This document shows positions 8,964 to 19,284 of a stretch of 58,001 bases of DNA, one piece after another (the first letter of the stretch is position 1; every line of letters starts with the position of its first letter). The stretch lies in contig WGBD01000009.1 in NCBI GenBank assembly GCA_015494465.1, forward strand, positions 1 to 58,001, written 5' to 3'. Below the pieces are notes generated by a model. The model did no database searches and was not told where the DNA came from. It saw only the letters and a list, made by a program, of their open reading frames with translations. Origin of the DNA: Candidatus Omnitrophota bacterium (GTDB taxonomy: Bacteria > Omnitrophota > Gorgyraeia > S143-82). The position numbers and the translations under genes are program-made.

Positions 8964-9644
8964 TCATTTCACCAGCGCCTCATTGATCTTGGCCAACAGA
9001 AAATCAAATCCGTTCCTTACATAATAATCACGCAAATCCTTTTCCAAAAGAGAACCCAACGAAACCTTGTAATCCCTCTTTTTGAAAGACCTTGCAATCC
9101 TATCTAACTTTTGCAATACATCTTTATCGTCGGGAAGAGACAAACCTTGTCGCAACAAAAATTCTATGTCAAAAAAATCCCGTATCTCCTTTCTATCCAC
9201 CGCAGCAGCGATCTTATTCTCTAAAGTCTGCTTCAATGTATGCACCTTGAGCGCAACCTGCCTTGTCGAATACGGGGAATACGCTATCCTCTGCTCAAAA
9301 TCCCACGCCTTAGTCTCTTTCCGTATCTCTATCTTCAATCTATTTGGATAATTAGGACTCCGTACCTCTATAAGGAGTGAATAATGCTTATTTTTGCTAT
9401 CCGTAATCTCAAAATCCCGAGATAGCCCCATTTTCATCTTCCTAAAGTAATCTCTAACATCCATAGGCTCTAAGGACCAGAAATCAAGGTCGATGGAATA
9501 CCTTTTAAGCCCCCAACAAACCCTTAGCATCGTTCCGCCACCAAAGATTAATGGGCCAAGAAGTCTCAAACTATTTAATCTATCCAGAACCTCCATCTCA
9601 AACATCTCATGCTTGCGAAGATTGTACATATCTCTCAACTTCAC
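8964..9644 (-). CDS. AbiEii/AbiGii-family nucleotidyltransferase toxin (type IV TA)
   Basis: FGGGTML, RYSIDLDF, LKIEI, K..A..DR...RDFFDI. Confidence 0.9.
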   Translation of the reverse strand: MKLRDMYNLRKHEMFEMEVLDRLNSLRLLGPLIFGGGTMLRVCWGLKRYSIDLDFWSLEPMDVRDYFRKMKMGLSRDFEITDSKNKHYSLLIEVRSPNYPNRLKIEIRKETKAWDFEQRIAYSPYSTRQVALKVHTLKQTLENKIAAAVDRKEIRDFFDIEFLLRQGLSLPDDKDVLQKLDRIARSFKKRDYKVSLGSLLEKDLRDYYVRNGFDFLLAKINEALVK

Positions 9645-10203
9645 CCCTTACCTTTTTGGGATACCTGCGACTGAAGCCCCTTAATTTTTTAATGTCAAAT
9701 TTATCAAAATCAATAGAAGAGATGTCGAACCTGTATCTGCCCAGTAATGCCATATAGAGACTGTCCAAAAAGGCCTTCTCCGGCTCTGCTATAAAAAAAT
9801 CACCTTTTCTGACAAACCCAAAATACAATTCACTCTTTATCTTGGTATAAATAAAAACGAAACCATCTATAGAGACCTCTTTTGTCCGCTTTTGGCTCAC
9901 GGACTCTATAAAATCACGCAATACCTGCGTCGTAATTCCGTAGTACTCAAGAGCAGACATGAAAGACACATAAGAAGGAACCTGTATAATATTGGCAATA
10001 GCAAACCGCTCCTCCTGAGAAAGGCCCTGCCACACAGACCGCAGAATATAGAGATTCCTCTTTATCCGCAACAGGATTCCATACTTAACAAAACGATGCG
10101 CCTCAACCCTTGCAGAGGCAAGACTAATCCCTAACACCTTGGCTATATCCTCATAACCAAAATAAAGTTTACCAATCTTGTTTAACTTGTCATAATTAAC
10201 CAT
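9607..10203 (-). CDS. AbiEi-family antitoxin / transcriptional regulator
   Basis: wHTH with RIKRNLY, PSYVSFMSALEYYGI, IAEPEKAFLD; directly upstream of and overlapping the toxin. Confidence 0.88.
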   Translation of the reverse strand: MVNYDKLNKIGKLYFGYEDIAKVLGISLASARVEAHRFVKYGILLRIKRNLYILRSVWQGLSQEERFAIANIIQVPSYVSFMSALEYYGITTQVLRDFIESVSQKRTKEVSIDGFVFIYTKIKSELYFGFVRKGDFFIAEPEKAFLDSLYMALLGRYRFDISSIDFDKFDIKKLRGFSRRYPKKVRGEVERYVQSSQA

Positions 10204-10221
10204 GGCTATTGCCAAGCATAT

Positions 10222-12307: not shown

Positions 12308-12871
12308 TCAGTTGCGAGCACATTTCCCGCAATATTTTAAGCAAAACGGCCTCATCAAGTTCTCAGCCAAAAGATTTCTCACACAGGATATCGTATCCTC
12401 GCTCAACTGGGCTAGGCTTTTATATTTCTCCTCTGAAAAATCCTGCATCTCCTTATGTAAATTGCCAAAGTATGGATCTGGCTTTAACCACCTTGCGAGG
12501 TGCACAAGATTTCTACTTTCCTGCAACCATTTGACCCAATCTTTCACAATGCCAAAATCTCCTACCCTCTCCTTAATTGGAATCCAATCCAACTCTTCCG
12601 CTATCTTTATTAGATCAGAAAAAGTAAATTCCAAAAAAATCCCTCGTTTTCGTTTCTTCCCACCTCTTCGTCCTTTGCTACCCTTATACTTTCTATATGT
12701 TTCGGTCCTTCTAACCTCCGACGCACGGACAAAACACATGCACAAAAGTGCTGCTTCTAAAAGCGCCCCGTATAGAATTAGCGAGGCAATATAACATTTA
12801 TGTTTAGAACAGATTCTTGCTTCTTTCTGAAACCTATCCATAATGTCCATGGCTAAATCGAGATTGTACAT
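12308..12871 (-). CDS. Hypothetical protein, HEPN/DUF4145-like
   Basis: EA..C....Y.ASLIL.GALLEAAL helix, LIKIAEELDWI, and RNLVH motif. Confidence 0.6.
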   Translation of the reverse strand: MYNLDLAMDIMDRFQKEARICSKHKCYIASLILYGALLEAALLCMCFVRASEVRRTETYRKYKGSKGRRGGKKRKRGIFLEFTFSDLIKIAEELDWIPIKERVGDFGIVKDWVKWLQESRNLVHLARWLKPDPYFGNLHKEMQDFSEEKYKSLAQLSEDTISCVRNLLAENLMRPFCLKYCGKCARN

Positions 12872-13125: not shown

Positions 13126-13308
13126 TATAAAAAATTGCGGCTACGAGAAGAAGATGCCTGTTTATTTACCTTGAAATTGCTGATGACAAGTTGCAGTAGT
13201 TCATCCATTTCTCTCGCACCTATCCCTCCGAACTTATTATCCCTTTTGCCCCCCCTCCGTAGTTCCCAATAATACACTAACACCCAACAAATGCAGGTTC
13301 AAGGAGGT

Positions 13309-14607
13309 TCAGGTTTTCACCCCTAAGTCGGTGGGGGCGCGGCCGAGGGATTGGAGCAGGGATATGGCCTCGTCTATCTGGGTCTCCAGTTTCTCATCGC
13401 GCCACGCACGGTTGGGGTATATGGCGTAGGACCTGCGCTGGTGTATGGGGGTGATGTTCAGCATTATGGAATTCGCCCCGGCCATCAGCCCGCGTTCCCG
13501 GGCCTTGGAATCCAAGGTCTCGAATGCGGTGGTGACCAGTATCCTGCCTTGGCGGTAGTCTGCCATGCGCATCACTGCCAGGGTCTTCAACATCAACTCT
13601 GGATCAGGGGGTCTGGCCTCTGCAAGTGGGGTGTCTTGATGGGGTATAAACGGTCCGAACGAATACATCTCCGCGGACAACTCCCGGGCGAGGAGGATGT
13701 CGTTGACGATGTCCTCCAAGGTCTGTCCGGGCAGGCCCACCAGGGCCCCGGTGAAGACGAGGAAGCCTATCTCCCGGGCGTGGCGGATGTGCTCCAGCCG
13801 ACTGGACAGTTCCTTTCCGGGGTGGAGTTCCCGGTACAGGGCGGGATTGGAGGTCTCAAAGCGCATCAACAGGCCCCTTGCCCCTGCCGCAAAGAGGGCC
13901 TCTAATCCCTCCAATCCCACCTCTCCGAAACTCACGCAGAGAAAGACGCTGCGCTCCTCCAATATCGCCCTTACCAGAGAGACATAATAATCCAAGGGCA
14001 GGCCTTCTCCGGACTGGAGCACCAGGGCCTTGAAGCCATAACGGTCTATTGCCGAGAGCGCCAAGTCCTTTACCTCTTCGACGCTCATCTGATAGCGAGG
14101 CAGTCTTCGGTTGTGCACGGAGATCCCGCAGTACTTGCAGGCGCAGGTGCACCGGTTGGAGACCTCTATTATGCCGTGGACGCAGCAGGAGTTACCGGTG
14201 TACTTGTGTCTGAGGAAGTTCGCGGAGCGGTAGAGGTATTCCAGATCCTGCGGATCTTCCAGGTGGATGAGGTACAGGAGGTCGTCCCTATCCAGGTCCT
14301 TGCCGTAAAATGCCTTGTCTAATATCCTCAAGAGGCGCTGGTTCTGGGTGTGGGCCTCAGGGGCGCGGGACAAACTAAGGTCCAGCTCCTGAAGGCGGAA
14401 GAAGCTCTCCTTCCACAGGTCCAGAACGGACTCCGCGTAATCCGGAGGGAGTGTCTCTATGACGTACCCGCCCTGGGCGTATACGTAATCTCCTATGCGG
14501 ACCTCGTCGAGTTCGTTGATCGCTAGTTTCTTTTCTCCGAAGTAATCTATGAGGACCCGGTTCTCTCCTACGAAGGCCTCAACCTTACCGGGTATGGCAT
14601 AACACAT
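13309..14607 (-). CDS. HypC-domain / HydE-like radical SAM fusion protein
   Basis: N-term MCYAIPGKV..IDYFG..GDYVYAQGG (HypC); then SNRCTCACKYCGI (CxxxCxxC), VLQSGE, MRFET, GLPGQT, GPFIPH..TP, TTAF, GANSIMLN.TP, YAIYP (HydE/PylB/BioB clan). Confidence 0.88.
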   Translation of the reverse strand: MCYAIPGKVEAFVGENRVLIDYFGEKKLAINELDEVRIGDYVYAQGGYVIETLPPDYAESVLDLWKESFFRLQELDLSLSRAPEAHTQNQRLLRILDKAFYGKDLDRDDLLYLIHLEDPQDLEYLYRSANFLRHKYTGNSCCVHGIIEVSNRCTCACKYCGISVHNRRLPRYQMSVEEVKDLALSAIDRYGFKALVLQSGEGLPLDYYVSLVRAILEERSVFLCVSFGEVGLEGLEALFAAGARGLLMRFETSNPALYRELHPGKELSSRLEHIRHAREIGFLVFTGALVGLPGQTLEDIVNDILLARELSAEMYSFGPFIPHQDTPLAEARPPDPELMLKTLAVMRMADYRQGRILVTTAFETLDSKARERGLMAGANSIMLNITPIHQRRSYAIYPNRAWRDEKLETQIDEAISLLQSLGRAPTDLGVKT

Positions 14608-14618
14608 GGACCTTCTCC

Positions 14619-14864
14619 TTACTCCTCGTATTCAAAGGAGTCCAATATCAAGGTCTGACCTTGCGCGGGCTCTATCTCCACCCCGCAACCTTCAAAGAGG
14701 TCCTTCTCGTCGCAGTTCTGAAGATAAAACCTGACCACCTCGGGATCTATCTCGGAAAACTCCCCCATCTTTATCCGCACCCGGGTAATCCTCCTTGCCC
14801 CCAGCTCCCTTGCCCGCTTCACCAAGTCCTCAACCAGCGCCTTAACGAACTTGATCTCGTGCAT
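14619..14864 (-). CDS. hypA: Short HypA nickel metallochaperone lacking the Zn-finger domain
   Basis: MHE N-terminus, RITRVRIKMGEFSEIDPEVVRF, C-terminal G..L.LDSFE; no CxxC pairs. Confidence 0.85.
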   Translation of the reverse strand: MHEIKFVKALVEDLVKRARELGARRITRVRIKMGEFSEIDPEVVRFYLQNCDEKDLFEGCGVEIEPAQGQTLILDSFEYEE

Positions 14865-15348
14865 CTCTTTCCCTCCTTGTTCTTGCTATGCTCTCGGCAA
14901 TGCGCCTGCCCGCAGAGACCACCTCGGATGATATCTCTTCACCGAAGCCCATCTTGGCAACTTGTACCCCTAAAAAGCGGACCTCCATGTCCGGACGATC
15001 CAACTTTACCATAGATATTACCACTGGCAGGGGGATGCTGTGGGTGCTAAGGGTGAACAGGGACAACTCCTCCTCGGATACAAACTGCACCTCTCCTGCC
15101 TCTCCACCGAAGTCGGCTGCGTCTATCACGAGCAGTAAAGAGGCGTCGCTGTTTACTATTGGATCAATGAAGTTCTCGGGGGTGGTCCCTGCGGAGAATA
15201 CTGAGAGCCCCTCTTCCTCTTTCAGCAGGTCGGCGACGTAACAACCTATACCGTCGTCCATCCTATAGGGATTGCCTATTCCCAGGACGGCGACGGATCT
15301 GTGGCGGTTGAGCAGGTCAACGAGATCTCTTTCCCACGAACTTGACAT
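14842..15348 (-). CDS. Hydrogenase maturation endopeptidase (HycI type)
   Basis: LGIGNPYRMDDGIG, GTTPENF, IDAADFG, STHSIPL. Confidence 0.93.
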   Translation of the reverse strand: MSSSWERDLVDLLNRHRSVAVLGIGNPYRMDDGIGCYVADLLKEEEGLSVFSAGTTPENFIDPIVNSDASLLLVIDAADFGGEAGEVQFVSEEELSLFTLSTHSIPLPVVISMVKLDRPDMEVRFLGVQVAKMGFGEEISSEVVSAGRRIAESIARTRRERDARDQVR

Positions 15349-16651
15349 CTAAGAAGTGGGTTGAGCAGGATATGCAGGGATCGTAGGCGCGAACGAGCAT
15401 CTCCAACAGGAGGGTTATCTCCTCCTCGCTGTTGTCCAGTATCTCGGGAATGAGTTTCTTCATGTCGTGTTCGATGTTGTTGAGGTTCTGGTTGGTGGGG
15501 ATTATGCAGTTTGCCCCTACGATCTTACCCTGATCGTCTATCTCGTACTCGTGGAAAAGGACACCTCTGGGGGCCTCTACCGCACCTACCCCCCGGCCTG
15601 CCTTTACCGGGATGGTGCCCCTCTCGTTCAAACCGACGGAGACCTCCTCACTGTAGTCTATACCGTTCTCGAGAAAGTTCTTTACTATCGCTATCGAATC
15701 CTCAACGCAGTGCACGCACTCTATCAATTGGGCAACAGTATTCAAGTAGGGATTGTGATTCGGCACCTTGAAGCCCAAGGCCTCGGCAGCCTCCTTTGCC
15801 CGGGGATGGAGTTTGTCGAAGTTGAGGTTCAGGCGGGCCAGGGCCCCCACCATGTAACTTTCCCGGGAAAGGCGGGTGTGCTTGGCAGTGGAGTGGGGGA
15901 CGATGAACTCGTTGGTTATCTTTCGGTATTGGTGCTTGTGCTTTCTCACCCCGTCGGTGGAGCCGATGTCTCCGTCCAGCAACGGATACTCCTCGTCGTC
16001 CCTCACCAAGGCAACGTATTCGGTCTCTCTCTCGAACTCAGGGAACTTTATCCCCTTGAACAATTCAACGGTGGCGTCTACATCCAGTTTGAGGTCTTCC
16101 AGCATCCGGAGCATCGACTCCAGCTCGTGTCTTCTCGGGAGTTTCGTAAAGCCCCCTATCACGGTGGTGATGGGGTGAATGTGCCGTCCGGCTATCAGCT
16201 CGCAGACGTCGTTGACGCACTTCTTCATCTTCAGGGCCCTGCGGACTACCTTCTCGTGAGTCTCCAAGAGGGGAACGAAGCTCTTTACCCGCATCAGATC
16301 CGGCAGGACCAGGATGTAGATGTGGAGTATGTGGCTGTCGAGCATCTCCTGATGTAGCAAGAGGCGCCGGAGTTCCCTCGTCTGGTGAGACGGGGTTATC
16401 CCCAAGGCGTCCTCTGCTGCCTGTATGGAGACCAGACTGTGGGCACAGGAGCATATACCACAGATGCGAGAGGTGATGTGCTGGGCCTCAAATATGGAAC
16501 GCCCCCGCAACATCGCCTCAAAGAACCTCGGCGATTCTATTATCTCCAGTTTGCACTCCTTTATGGTGCCTTCTTCCACGTCCACGACGATGTTGCCGTG
16601 GCCTTCCACTCGGGTGAGGTACTCGACGTTTACCTTTACGCTCTTGGGCAT
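15317..16651 (-). CDS. Group 3b [NiFe]-hydrogenase large (alpha) subunit
   Basis: TRVEGHG, RICGIC (L1), EAPRG, RAYDPCISCSTH (L2) plus C-terminal extension. Confidence 0.96.
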   Translation of the reverse strand: MPKSVKVNVEYLTRVEGHGNIVVDVEEGTIKECKLEIIESPRFFEAMLRGRSIFEAQHITSRICGICSCAHSLVSIQAAEDALGITPSHQTRELRRLLLHQEMLDSHILHIYILVLPDLMRVKSFVPLLETHEKVVRRALKMKKCVNDVCELIAGRHIHPITTVIGGFTKLPRRHELESMLRMLEDLKLDVDATVELFKGIKFPEFERETEYVALVRDDEEYPLLDGDIGSTDGVRKHKHQYRKITNEFIVPHSTAKHTRLSRESYMVGALARLNLNFDKLHPRAKEAAEALGFKVPNHNPYLNTVAQLIECVHCVEDSIAIVKNFLENGIDYSEEVSVGLNERGTIPVKAGRGVGAVEAPRGVLFHEYEIDDQGKIVGANCIIPTNQNLNNIEHDMKKLIPEILDNSEEEITLLLEMLVRAYDPCISCSTHFLDVKFVGKRSR

Positions 16652-16652
16652 A

Positions 16653-17405
16653 TCACTCCTTCTCCTGCGGTTGGATCTCCTTGGCCCGATTGTACATGTT
16701 AAACTTGTTTATTATCCACTCCAAAGGAATCCCGTATCTCTTTAACACCTCCATCTGGGCGTTCTTGTTGGGGTTGGATACCATCCCCCGACAGCCATAG
16801 CATATGTTCCCGTTGTTCGTGCACCAGCTGTTGCACCCCGCCCGGGTTATGGGGCCAAGACAGGTTATACCCTTATCGTACATGCACTCGTTCTCGTTGA
16901 ATTTGCATTCCACACACACTGCATAATCCGGGACCTTGTAGGGCAACCCCTGCAGGACGCACTTCAAGACCCTCACGAATTCGGGGATGTACACCGGACA
17001 GCCCGGCACATAATAGTCCACCTTCACCACCTGATCCACTGCCATGGTGGGTACGGTGTCGAACCAATCCGCCTTGTCCTGATACACGTACCGTTTCACG
17101 TCCTCCAGATCAAAGTCGTTCTTCATCCCGTTTACTCCACCGGTGCAGGCACAGGCCCCGTAGGCGATGAGGATCTTGGCCTTCTCCCGGATTTTCTTTA
17201 TCCTCTCTATGTCGTGGTGGGTGGTGATGCTTCCTTCTACTACTGCAACCTCGTAATCGCCACCCCTCTCGGACATCACCTCGCGGAACTCCACCAGTTC
17301 TATCCGATCCAGTAGGTCTACCAAAAGGTCCCCCATGTTGGCCACCTGCAATTGGCAGCCTTCGCAACAGGCGAAGTCGAAGAATGCAACCTTTACCTTT
17401 TTCAT
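16653..17405 (-). CDS. Group 3b [NiFe]-hydrogenase small (delta) subunit
   Basis: CCEGC, EGS, GACA..GG, PGCP, VCVEC, CLGPITRAGC, CYGCRG. Confidence 0.95.
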   Translation of the reverse strand: MKKVKVAFFDFACCEGCQLQVANMGDLLVDLLDRIELVEFREVMSERGGDYEVAVVEGSITTHHDIERIKKIREKAKILIAYGACACTGGVNGMKNDFDLEDVKRYVYQDKADWFDTVPTMAVDQVVKVDYYVPGCPVYIPEFVRVLKCVLQGLPYKVPDYAVCVECKFNENECMYDKGITCLGPITRAGCNSWCTNNGNICYGCRGMVSNPNKNAQMEVLKRYGIPLEWIINKFNMYNRAKEIQPQEKE

Positions 17406-18238
17406 AGCGCCTCTAGGTTATCCTTTATCTCGTCGTAAGAAAAGACCGGTCCGTCCTGACAGCAGTAGTAATTGCCTATCTGGCAGTGTCCGCACTTGCC
17501 GATCCCGCACTTCATGTGCCTTTCCAACGAGACGATGATCTGCTTCTCGGGGATCCCCTTCTTGAGTAACTCTTTTATTACGAAGCGGTACATAATCGGC
17601 GGTCCCACCACCACCGCAAAGGTGCGCGTGGGATCCAGATCCACCCCGGGTATCAACGAGGTAATCAAGCCTACATTTCCTTTCCAGTCGGGATCGGCCC
17701 GGTCTACAGTACAGGAGAAGTCCACGTCTATCCTCCGGGCCCAACTCTCCACCTCGTCTTTGAAGAGGATGTCCTTCGGACTACGACATCCCAAGAGGAT
17801 GTGCACCCGCCCGAAGTCCCTACGGTTGTCTATCACGAAGTCCACTAAGGACCTCAGGGGGACCAGACCCAAACCACCGGCCACAAACAAGAGGTCATTA
17901 CCCTCAAGGATCCTCACTGGAAAGCCCCTGCCAAACGGACCGCGTATGCCGACGGTGTCTCCCACTTCCAGACGGTGGATCGCACTGGTGACCTTACCCA
18001 CCTTCCTCACCACCAGTTCAAAGTATCCCTTCTTGGTGGGAGAAGAGCATATGGATATCGGGGCCTCGCCCACCCCGAATATGGAGACCATCACGAACTG
18101 GCCGGGCTCGTGGTCGAGGTCCGGCTCGTCCCTCAACATCAACTTAAAGTACTTTTCGTGCTCGGTCATCTGTCGGACCTCGCACACCTTTGCCTCTTTC
18201 ACCAGATACGGGGAATCTACCAGCTGCAACCGCTTCAT
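17402..18238 (-). CDS. Group 3b hydrogenase gamma subunit (FAD/NAD(P)-binding, 2Fe-2S)
   Basis: PGQFVM, GEAPIS, RGPFG, AGGLGLVP, GPPIM, ERHMKCGIGKCGHC, CQDGPVF. Confidence 0.94.
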   Translation of the reverse strand: MKRLQLVDSPYLVKEAKVCEVRQMTEHEKYFKLMLRDEPDLDHEPGQFVMVSIFGVGEAPISICSSPTKKGYFELVVRKVGKVTSAIHRLEVGDTVGIRGPFGRGFPVRILEGNDLLFVAGGLGLVPLRSLVDFVIDNRRDFGRVHILLGCRSPKDILFKDEVESWARRIDVDFSCTVDRADPDWKGNVGLITSLIPGVDLDPTRTFAVVVGPPIMYRFVIKELLKKGIPEKQIIVSLERHMKCGIGKCGHCQIGNYYCCQDGPVFSYDEIKDNLEAL

Positions 18239-19284
18239 ACCCCAGCCCTTTCGGCTATCAAGGCCTTTATCGTCTCCTTTATGTGGATCTGGGCCATGCA
18301 GGCCCGGGAACACCTCCCGCAACCGGTACAGAAGAACCTGCTGTACTTGGCAAGGGGATACTTGAACTTGCGCAGGTACCTGTGCCTCTGCCGGCCACTG
18401 CGCTCCTCGCGAAAGCTCTCTCCTCCCGCCACCTTGGCGAAGTCCTCGTTCTGACAGGAATCCCAGATGCGGAACCTCTCACCAGTGCGCAGGTCCAGGT
18501 TTATCTCGTCTATCACGTCGAAACAATAACAGGTGGGACAGACCGTGGTGCAGTTCCCACAGGAGAGACACCGCTCTCCCAGCTCCTCCCAGACCCGGGC
18601 ATCCTCGCAATTGGCGAACAGATCCATCAGCTCCGGATGGGAAAGGTCTATGCCTGTGTCAAATGCGGACCTTTTCTTTTCCCTGAACTCCTGCAAGCGT
18701 TTCAGGTCCTCTCCTGTGGCCTCAGTGAAGACGCCTATGGAACGGACGATCTCCTCCCCAACCTCTGTGTTCACATGAATCAGGTGATAATCTCCCAGAT
18801 CGCTAAAGAAAAGGTCGTAACCTCCCTTAGGGAGGTGATTGTCCATCAGGGCACAAAGGGCGTGCTCGTCGCAGTAGTCCCAGCACTCCATGCCGATGAT
18901 TATGAGTTTGTTCTTTCGAATCAGGTAATTCACGTCCCGGGGCCTTTCGGAGAAGACCATGTTTAGGCACTGTATCCCCGCCAGGTCGCAGGTCCTGACG
19001 CCAAAGATGACTACCTTCTCGTACTCCATCACCGCCTTCTGGCGCTGAGCAACCGCGTCGTATTCCAGTATTGTCTCCCTTTGAGGGAAGAAGTACTTTT
19101 TCGGTGGGATTATCGTAGGGATGTACTCCTCTGGGGAGGCGATCTCGTCGGGAGAAGAGATGCGAGCGAAGACGAAGCTTTTTTCTCCCCGCTTCACTGG
19201 AGCGACCACCTGATAACGCGAGGTCAGGGCCCCGACGAACTCCCTACACTCGGTCTTGTTAAGACGATAGTACTGATCCATCAC
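18235..19284 (-). CDS. Group 3b hydrogenase beta subunit (4Fe-4S dicluster)
   Basis: PPKKYFFP, RTCD, CLSCGNCTTVCPTCYC, WDSC, CTGCGRCSRAC. Confidence 0.94.
   Translation of the reverse strand: MMDQYYRLNKTECREFVGALTSRYQVVAPVKRGEKSFVFARISSPDEIASPEEYIPTIIPPKKYFFPQRETILEYDAVAQRQKAVMEYEKVVIFGVRTCDLAGIQCLNMVFSERPRDVNYLIRKNKLIIIGMECWDYCDEHALCALMDNHLPKGGYDLFFSDLGDYHLIHVNTEVGEEIVRSIGVFTEATGEDLKRLQEFREKKRSAFDTGIDLSHPELMDLFANCEDARVWEELGERCLSCGNCTTVCPTCYCFDVIDEINLDLRTGERFRIWDSCQNEDFAKVAGGESFREERSGRQRHRYLRKFKYPLAKYSRFFCTGCGRCSRACMAQIHIKETIKALIAERAGV

Follow-up and report, generated by a model that had tools for sequence, protein, structure and literature searches.

How does a [NiFe] hydrogenase obtain its iron–carbonyl–cyanide unit in a bacterium in which the proteins that usually supply this unit are not found? 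This question is raised by a stretch of 58,001 nucleotides from a Candidatus Omnitrophota bacterium (assembly GCA_015494465.1, contig WGBD01000009.1, positions 1 to 58,001; this whole stretch is referred to here as the window), in which a [NiFe] hydrogenase operon ends with a gene that encodes a HypC-like domain fused to a radical S-adenosylmethionine (SAM) enzyme resembling HydE, a maturase of [FeFe] hydrogenases. In the standard pathway, HypE and HypF supply cyanide from carbamoyl phosphate, a route that needs both proteins, and the ligands of a standard [NiFe] site are two CN and a single CO. To our knowledge, [NiFe] maturation has been described as universally dependent on HypC, HypD, HypE, and HypF, and the anaerobic source of the CO ligand is still open. 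From the comparisons reported below, it is fairly probable that the HypC–HydE fusion is a bifunctional [NiFe] maturase which, together with HydG, replaces these four proteins as the route to the Fe–CO/CN unit. The support for such a HypCDEF-independent route is all comparative and predictive.

Distribution and linkage of maturation genes

The window corresponds to contig C9 of a 1.41-Mb assembly (12 contigs, 96.7% complete), and genome inventories were drawn up by hidden Markov model (HMM) searches of six-frame translations. In the source genome, these searches gave no match to HypD, no HypB at E ≤ 0.01, and no second HypC beside the fusion; the best scores for HypE and HypF were 49 bits (cut-off 251.6) and 28 bits (cut-off 466), respectively. 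The search for the [FeFe] HydA domain was empty throughout the genome, and for HydF only GTPase domains were recovered (best score 92.5 bits, cut-off 325.6). When paralogues of the radical SAM part of the fusion were sought by tblastn in the same genome, only HydG turned up. This HydG (G000:C4:64402-65835, equivalent to L001 1477-2910) scores 448.6 and 449.1 bits against a cut-off of 312.15 and has the C-terminal Cys-rich motif in a variant spacing; its gene is flanked on contig C4 by truA-like and metX-like open reading frames (ORFs), which were named by eye. The statement in the initial annotation that hypB, hypD, hypE, hypF, hydF, and hydG do not occur within the 58 kb is borne out, with hydG located on contig C4 instead.

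A sample of 201 genomes of the phylum, the source genome included, was searched for the fusion, HypD, HypF, the [NiFe] large subunit, HydG, and HydA. The fusion is carried by 23 of them: 21 have full-length matches, and in two (G055 and G131) the linker is about 40 amino acids (aa) shorter. HypD was found in 51 of the 201 genomes and HypF-like genes in 54, and neither was found in any of the 23 carriers. Similarly, HypE was absent from all 23 carriers, versus its presence in five of five HypD-positive controls. A [NiFe] large subunit is encoded in 75 genomes, among which 49 have HypD, 23 have the fusion, three have neither, and none has both; these 49 represent nearly all of the 51 HypD-positive genomes. 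For the three genomes with neither (G140, G146, and G196), completeness is 72–91%, and fragments of HypF are present in two. The fusion type and the HypD type are found side by side inside at least six family groups (f3, f12, f31, f36, f44, and f45), so the pattern is not that of one single split. The HypF that adjoins hypD is short, about 365–420 aa, in most of the phylum's HypD-positive genomes (e.g., G179:C18:25542-26645 and G063:C24:14715-15812); it matches only positions ~380–740 of the HypF model, and the full-length cut-off is passed in only 11 of the 201 genomes.

HydG scores over its cut-off in 93 of the 201 genomes and in 21 of the 23 carriers; the corresponding counts for HydA are 85 and 11. 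HydF accompanies HydA in 10 of the 11 HydA-positive carriers and occurs in none of the 12 HydA-less ones. As read from the tables, HydG without HydA is found in 13 genomes, 12 of which are the HydA-less carriers; the remaining one, G150, has HypD and a contamination rating of 6%.

A scan of species-representative genomes gave 356 stretches in which a relative is encoded, and the best 80 of these, all full-length fusions, were examined with 8 kb on either side. A [NiFe] large subunit is present in 63 of the 80 loci (49 group-3-like and 14 group-4-like), a maturation protease in 68, and, in 40, a short HypA (~80 aa) that keeps the N-terminal MHE and has no zinc-finger Cys pairs. The gene directly upstream of the fusion is a maturation gene or a [NiFe] large subunit gene in 68 loci. 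HydG is encoded at any position in 42 loci, and in 34 it is the gene directly downstream, on the same strand. No HypD, HypE, or HypF was found in the 80 loci; HydA is present in seven, HydF in one, and a stand-alone HydE in one. The module consists of the protease, the HypA N-domain, and HypC–HydE, often followed by HydG, and it is attached to soluble group-3b-like and membrane-bound group-4-like enzymes alike. In 31 fusion-linked large subunits, the RICGIC and DPCISC..H motifs, which are of the RxCGxC and DPCxxCxxH type, are invariant. Together with the C-terminal extension, this indicates that the catalytic subunit resembles a standard [NiFe] protein that needs the standard cofactor.

HydG had not been considered in the initial annotation as a third partner. 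Its presence in the source genome, its position adjoining the fusion in most HydA-less carriers, and its fusion with HypC–HydE in two genomes suggest this role. In 11 of the 12 HydA-less carriers of the sample, HydG either comes next after the fusion or is located on the contig that bears the cut-off end of the fusion; the exception is the source genome itself. A single HypC–HydE–HydG ORF of 915 aa is found in G153 (L030 12651-15398), and another of 921 aa at L070 8001-10766, where Pfam detects two BATS, two Radical_SAM, and one HupF_HypC domain. By its title, the L070 record is a chromosome (1.52 Mb), and HypD, HypF, HypE, and HydA were all searched for in this genome and not found.

In some loci, a gap of 550–850 bp separates the fusion from hydG. 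Of 17 such loci that were examined, 16 have an ORF for a Rex-type regulator there, as in L084 (9312-9965) and L118 (9349-9981), the two loci to which Pfam was applied, with Put_DNA-bind_N and CoA_binding domains as the result; this suggests that the module is under NADH/NAD-dependent control. The idea that the gap ORF is an extra maturation factor was rejected on the basis of this identification. The HydG proteins of the phylum have two C-terminal Cys spacings, C-x5-C and C-x2-C, before an RTG segment, each in genomes with and without HydA. A [NiFe]-specific HydG marked by odd Cys spacing was also envisaged and was dropped because the same variant occurs in the HydG of HydA-positive genomes. 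In G187, a tandem repeat of a 7-residue unit is inserted ahead of the C-terminal domain of HydG.

The fusion protein and its family

The fusion is confirmed as a genuine gene and not an assembly artefact. As the initial annotation had proposed, a HypC-like N-terminal domain and a radical SAM barrel are encoded in one uninterrupted ORF, of 432 codons, with no stop or frameshift between them. Its ATG lies 11 nucleotides past the stop of the preceding hypA-like gene, and a GGAG-type ribosome-binding site, located 7–10 nucleotides before the ATG, overlaps the hypA-like stop codon. In the protein, Pfam identifies HupF_HypC at residues 1–65 (39.1 bits, cut-off 28.5), Radical_SAM at residues 147–304 (74.8 bits), and BATS at residues 320–402 (24.5 bits, cut-off 22.2). 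A contig from the probable source run covers positions 13200–15400 with zero differences and zero indels; this is not independent evidence, because that run is probably the origin of this DNA. Contigs of a second run from the same study cover parts of the stretch only. The fusion is also conserved in hundreds of genomes. All of the best 120 matches in the protein collection have both domains (PF01455 and PF04055), a length of 431–454 aa, and 99–100% query coverage, and the organisms named among these 120 are mostly Candidatus Omnitrophota. The record titles of the best 80 of the 356 stretches refer to Omnitrophota, Brevinematales/Spirochaetota, WOR-3, Atribacterota (Caldatribacterium), Margulisiibacteriota/Saganbacteria/WOR-1, and Auribacterota, and a few bins among these 80 are labelled Planctomycetia, Clostridia, or Deltaproteobacteria.

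The N-terminal part shares several features with HypC, HybG, and HupF: a Pfam HupF_HypC score over the cut-off, an invariant Met-Cys start, a predicted small beta barrel followed by a helix, and a location in a [NiFe] operon beside HypA and a protease. The protein begins with MCYAIPG, with Cys2 right after the initiator Met. In the segment GDYVYAQGG, Gln45 occupies the position of a His that is seen in the canonical HypC proteins of G008 and G089, two genomes of the phylum with HypD; this His of the GDY..H.G segment is regarded as a defining iron ligand of HypC. The translation and this comparison agree with the initial annotation, which had noted both the retained Cys2 and the replacement of His by Gln. 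Unlike HypC, HybG, and HupF, however, the domain is covalently joined to a radical SAM enzyme, its His is replaced by Gln (Ala in the L070 triple fusion, at an otherwise invariant position), and HypD, the obligate partner of these proteins, is gone from the source genome and from 23 of 23 sample carriers. The HypC profiles also disagree: the domain scores as HypC with PF01455, as given above, whereas with NCBIfam TIGR00074 it remains below the cut-off (34.1 versus 48 bits).

For the fusion protein as a whole, the top NCBIfam family is HydE (TIGR03956), with 220.5 bits, under the equivalog cut-off of 254.6; the runners-up are PylB (120 bits), BioB (94 bits), and HmdB (61 bits). Of HydE, PylB, and BioB, whose comparison had been recommended in the initial annotation, HydE scores highest. 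The HydE scores of the fusions compared range from 220 to 267 bits (237.9, 235.4, and 253.5 in other fusions and 267.4 in one with a short linker), versus 292–378 bits for the stand-alone HydE proteins of the phylum, six of six of which are over the cut-off. The HydE-type motifs that had been listed at the outset (the CxxxCxxC motif, VLQSGE, RFET, GPFIPH, TTA, and YxxY, here YAIY) are all present in the translation, the first of them at the positions given there (14128-14151). An alignment of 39 fusions shows C2, Q45, G46, G47, C141, C142, H144, the cluster cysteines, and a C-terminal GRAPTDLG to be invariant. The Cys-Cys-x-His motif is found in eight of eight fusion rows and in none of six stand-alone HydE rows; its three residues align to V51, H52, and R54 of Thermotoga maritima HydE (numbering from the 3cix row offset). 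In addition, the fusions have TTAFETL in place of the TTA(I/L)G(T/S)(I/L) of stand-alone HydE from the same phylum, and their C-terminal part, which ends in the GRAPTDLG segment, lacks the three Cys of stand-alone HydE. Met314 aligns to Met224 of T. maritima HydE and is at least 90% conserved among the 39 members; the comparison with the HydE substrate site covers Met224 only. According to the available text of one study, Met224 is the seat of the Fe(CO)2CN species after turnover (PMC8855341).

The AlphaFold2 model of the fusion, built on 39 family members, is confident (predicted local distance difference test, pLDDT, 91.7; predicted template-modelling score, pTM, 0.91), and in its HypC-like part five strands are followed by a long helix (residues 55–80). 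The closest solved fold is T. maritima HydE (3iiz; template-modelling score 0.92, normalised to target length; rmsd 1.6 Å over 336 columns, with 37% identity), followed by PylB and biotin synthase; T. maritima HydE is also the closest solved sequence (198.7 bits, residues 102–425). In a tree of radical SAM domains rooted with HydG, 36 long-linker fusions form a single clade (SH-aLRT 98), seven stand-alone HydE proteins form their own clade (SH-aLRT 90), and the two short-linker fusions form a third (SH-aLRT 89). The fusion therefore resembles HydE in its best family and solved fold, its CxxxCxxC motif, its BATS domain, its counterpart of Met224, and its co-occurrence with HydG. It differs from HydE in its score under the equivalog cut-off, its separate clade, a CCxH in place of xHxR, and the missing C-terminal Cys triad. 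It also departs from the HydG–HydE–HydF–HydA pathway in that 12 of the 23 carriers have neither HydF nor HydA and in that its gene is located in [NiFe], not [FeFe], operons.

A putative HydG-dependent route and its alternatives

In the [FeFe] pathway, tyrosine is converted by HydG, on a dangler iron, into [Fe(II)(CN)(CO)2(cysteinate)]-; HydE binds this product, the 5'-deoxyadenosyl radical attacks the cysteine sulfur, and the mononuclear Fe(CO)2(CN)S species formed after HydE then dimerises (available text of PMC8855341). By extension to the system described here, HydG would cleave tyrosine and assemble an Fe(CO)x(CN)y–cysteine synthon. The HydE-like barrel would take up this synthon and remove the cysteine by 5'-deoxyadenosyl radical attack, as is known for T. 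maritima HydE. With no dimerisation and no transfer to HydF, the mononuclear Fe–carbonyl–cyanide unit would bind to Cys2 in the HypC-like domain tethered to the barrel, and Cys141, Cys142, and His144 may assist in this. Interception of the mononuclear species at this stage would make the HypD scaffold, as well as HypE and HypF, dispensable. By analogy with HypC, the HypC-like domain may then dock on the apo large subunit and hand over the unit, after which, to judge from the gene set, the zinc-finger-less HypA would insert nickel and the HycI-type protease would trim the C-terminal extension. The initial annotation had suggested that the fusion hands a radical-SAM-derived Fe–CO/CN unit to a [NiFe] enzyme, either replacing or supplementing HypD, HypE, and HypF. 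The comparative evidence in favor of this proposal is strong, and none of the three outcomes that the annotation had named as refuting it was observed; of the two variants, replacement agrees with the data and a supplementary role does not.

More generally, the chances seem about even that some anaerobes make the iron of their [NiFe] site wholly with tyrosine-derived CO and CN, which would pass from HydG through the HydE-like barrel to the HypC-like carrier without HypD, HypE, HypF, or carbamoyl phosphate. These anaerobes would be mostly Omnitrophota, with Margulisiibacteriota/Saganbacteria, Atribacterota, Brevinematales, WOR-3, and Auribacterota also represented among the record titles. Such a pathway would be a second independent cofactor route, linking [FeFe] and [NiFe] maturation and possibly producing a non-standard ligand set.

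Several observations weigh against the proposed route. The HydG synthon has the composition (CO)2(CN) (PMC8855341), a mismatch in stoichiometry with the (CO)(CN)2 of the [NiFe] site, and there is no sign of an unusual site, because the large subunits have only the canonical RICGIC and DPCISC..H motifs. Two carriers of the sample fall short for HydG, with none in G162 (89% complete) and a partial fragment at a contig end in G108, both being incomplete assemblies; similarly, the incomplete assembly G210, titled as another phylum, gave no HydG match. Carriers with an [FeFe] hydrogenase have one HydG, of the ordinary type by its C-terminal motif, and thus no HydG specialisation. Among 67 carriers reached through the loci, HypD was found in one, G248 (L131); at least three of the 67 are identical to sample genomes, and completeness figures are absent for this set. 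The absence of HypD, HypE, and HypF is defined by HMM homology, which a non-homologous substitute would escape. The carriers among the best 80 of the 356 stretches are, from their record titles, all metagenome or single-cell assemblies, and the hydrogenase activity is predicted only. The tree leaves the branching order of the three clades unresolved, with a support of 34 for the monophyly of all fusions. Finally, predictions of a complex between the HypC-like domain and the large subunit gave 0.40, 0.43, and 0.39, versus 0.00 for the best control, a result graded as weak support, and this weakness also counts against the route. Of 80 solved pairs, 58 attained the mark applied here, as did two of 110 mismatched pairs, and just seven of the 80 solved pairs, and both mismatches, met it at 0.60 or under; the runs share at least 59% of contacts, with a partner pLDDT of at least 71.

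The HypD of G248 (G248:C25:479-1534) lies on a 2,040-base contig with nothing else of note, and it could be either a binning contaminant or a real exception. Of 12 carriers titled as other phyla, none has HypD, 10 have HydG over the cut-off, and six have HydA.

Could the pattern have a more trivial origin? Nearly all carriers are metagenome bins, and no completeness figures accompany the 67 locus-reached genomes, so that the fusion or the missing Hyp genes might be attributed to misassembly, mis-binning, or incomplete bins. Such an artefact is exceedingly improbable: the best 120 matches are all fused, relatives occur in 356 stretches of species-representative genomes, the same HMM searches recover HypD in 51 and HypF-like genes in 54 of the 201 genomes, the source genome is 96.7% complete on 12 contigs, and an identical gene set is seen in L070, a record with the title of a chromosome. 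The initial annotation had pointed to a complete canonical hypCDEF set in all carriers, together with an [FeFe] set, as the finding that would explain HydE independently. The first is contradicted by the counts for HypD (0 of 23 in the sample and 1 of 67 among locus-reached genomes) and for HypE and HypF (0 of 23 each). The second corresponds to a reading in which the HydE part is an ordinary maturase for an [FeFe] hydrogenase that happens to be fused to HypC. HydA in 11 of 23 carriers, 10 of them with HydF, and HydA nearby in seven of 80 loci would be in line with this. It is nevertheless very unlikely, being already contradicted by the gene distribution across genomes: 12 of the 23 carriers, the source genome included, have neither HydA nor HydF, the L070 genome has no HydA, and the fusion gene is located in [NiFe] operons. 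Moreover, five HydA-positive carriers (G088, G200, G180, G187, and G051) hold a separate stand-alone HydE over the cut-off beside their HydG, HydF, and HydA genes in the fetched loci.

The two remaining alternatives concern the chemistry. HydG and the fusion may give one kind of ligand only, for example CO, with cyanide and the iron scaffold coming from unrecognised proteins. We consider such a partial role rather unlikely. HypF and HypE are both absent in 23 of 23 carriers, and the carbamoyl-phosphate route needs both; this absence is shown, however, at the level of HMM homology only, which leaves room for such proteins. The module contains no further conserved unknown gene, its recurrent extra ORF being the Rex-type regulator. 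The composition of the synthon, (CO)2(CN) (PMC8855341) against a (CO)(CN)2 site, would fit a partial role, but HydG makes both CO and CN (PMC8855341), and a second cyanide route is therefore not needed. It is also conceivable, though unlikely, that the HydE-like domain performs a different reaction, for instance one that modifies the large subunit or makes a small thiol ligand, with the HypC-like part acting only in targeting and Fe(CN)2CO arising otherwise. The score of the fusion under the HydE equivalog cut-off (220.5 versus 254.6 bits), the separate clade of its radical SAM domain, the clade-specific CCxH, and the missing C-terminal Cys triad of stand-alone HydE are consistent with this possibility. 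Against it, HydE is by far the nearest family and fold, the counterpart of Met224 is conserved, and the fusion is closely linked, including by two in-frame fusions, to HydG, which makes the substrate of HydE; a different reaction would also leave the loss of HypD, HypE, and HypF without explanation.

The proposed HydG-dependent route would be a new combination of known parts. Genomes across several lineages keep canonical [NiFe] catalytic subunits yet have lost HypD, HypE, and HypF, and a testable alternative for them is that radical SAM chemistry on tyrosine yields both types of ligand. If this is true, there would be a second route to a major metallocofactor, and the [FeFe] and [NiFe] maturation toolkits would be interchangeable with respect to the Fe(CO)(CN) synthon. 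Heterologous production of [NiFe] hydrogenases might then be achieved with a much smaller gene set, comprising the HypA N-domain, the protease, the fusion, and HydG. The scoring of hydrogen metabolism in metagenomes would also change, given that missing hypDEF genes are now usually taken as incompleteness.

Related systems and the surrounding operon

HypX is the aerobic CO-ligand synthase of some [NiFe] systems; it supplements HypCDEF and is not known to be a radical SAM enzyme. The fusion resembles HypX as an accessory enzyme that would feed a diatomic ligand to the [NiFe] iron center from outside the core Hyp proteins. It differs from HypX in that the core proteins HypD, HypE, and HypF are gone in fusion carriers and in that the proposed source of the ligand is tyrosine, through HydG.

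Full-text searches, which covered literature outside subscription journals and supplements, found no analysis of a HypC–HydE fusion or of HydG-dependent [NiFe] maturation, with one mention as the sole exception. A fused HydE-HypC protein, described as unusual, is reported in a [NiFe] operon of a Legionellales symbiont of Anaeramoeba pumila, with the fused gene beside a protease and HypA, as in the window, in a reduced genome of 1.52 Mb (bioRxiv 10.64898/2026.04.11.717937). In its main text, this preprint devotes one sentence to the fusion, as part of a "full maturation machinery," proposes no function for it, and does not mention HydG, HypD, HypE, or HypF. Unlike the source genome, the operon of the symbiont has HypB; the two systems are compared by description only (bioRxiv 10.64898/2026.04.11.717937). 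In their available text, neither a study of Omnitrophota hydrogenases (PMC8542988) nor one of archaeal hybrid hydrogenases (PMC11216029) treats fusion-based maturation, and no occurrence of the term "maturation" was found in PMC6349859.

In the window, the fusion is preceded on the same strand, going upstream, by the genes for the HypA N-domain, the HycI-type protease, and the large, small, gamma, and beta subunits (Table 1). All four subunits best match sulfhydrogenase (group 3b) families, each under the equivalog cut-off, and the group is placed by these matches. The description of the fusion in the initial annotation as the last gene of a group 3b operon is thus borne out at the level of a group-3b-like enzyme. 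The HypA of the HypD-positive genome G089, taken for comparison, has 113 aa and two CxxC pairs. The true start of the gamma subunit may be an internal Met near position 18238, because its relatives align only from residue ~29–37.

Table 1. Coordinates of the fusion gene, its domains and motifs, and the other genes of the operon in the window
Feature	Position	Strand	Basis
Gene for the HypC–HydE fusion (432 aa), at the end of the operon	13309..14607	-	ORF list; Pfam; best NCBIfam family HydE; AlphaFold2 model
HypC-like domain, residues 1–65, N-terminal Met-Cys, Gln45 in place of canonical His	14413..14607	-	Pfam; alignments; model
Clade-specific Cys-Cys-x-His (C141, C142, H144), just N-terminal of the radical SAM cluster motif	14176..14187	-	Alignments
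Radical SAM CxxxCxxC (C153, C157, C160)	14128..14151	-	Translation; invariant in alignment; inside Pfam Radical_SAM (147–304)
BATS domain, residues 320–402	13402..13650	-	Pfam
HypA with the N-terminal (MHE) domain only, 81 aa, without zinc-finger Cys pairs	14619..14864	-	Pfam HypA match to residues 1–70 of a 112-position profile
HycI-type hydrogenase maturation protease	14842..15348	-	Pfam HycI; TIGR00072, 104 bits (cut-off 47)
[NiFe] large subunit, 444 aa, RICGIC and DPCISC..H, C-terminal extension	15317..16651	-	Pfam NiFeSe_Hases; best NCBIfam family sulfhydrogenase HydA
Small (delta) subunit	16653..17405	-	Pfam Oxidored_q6; best NCBIfam family sulfhydrogenase HydD
Gamma subunit (FAD/NAD/Fe-S)	17402..18322	-	Pfam FAD_binding_6, NAD_binding_1, DHODB_Fe-S_bind; NCBIfam
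Beta subunit	18235..19284	-	Best NCBIfam family sulfhydrogenase HydB (237.6 bits); syntenic in relatives

Large-subunit ORFs of other sizes were noted in two loci. The one in G123 (L035 4194-6026) is 610 aa long; as an ORF for the protease was not found separately, it may be a fusion of the protease with the large subunit. At L091, an ORF of 733 aa matches the large subunit. In the window itself, an ORF of 187 aa (12308-12871, minus strand), which is AT-richer by eye, gives no match in Pfam. Two overlapping ORFs of 226 and 202 aa (8964-10215, minus strand) lie between the operon and its neighbors and are, also by eye, AT-richer than the operon.

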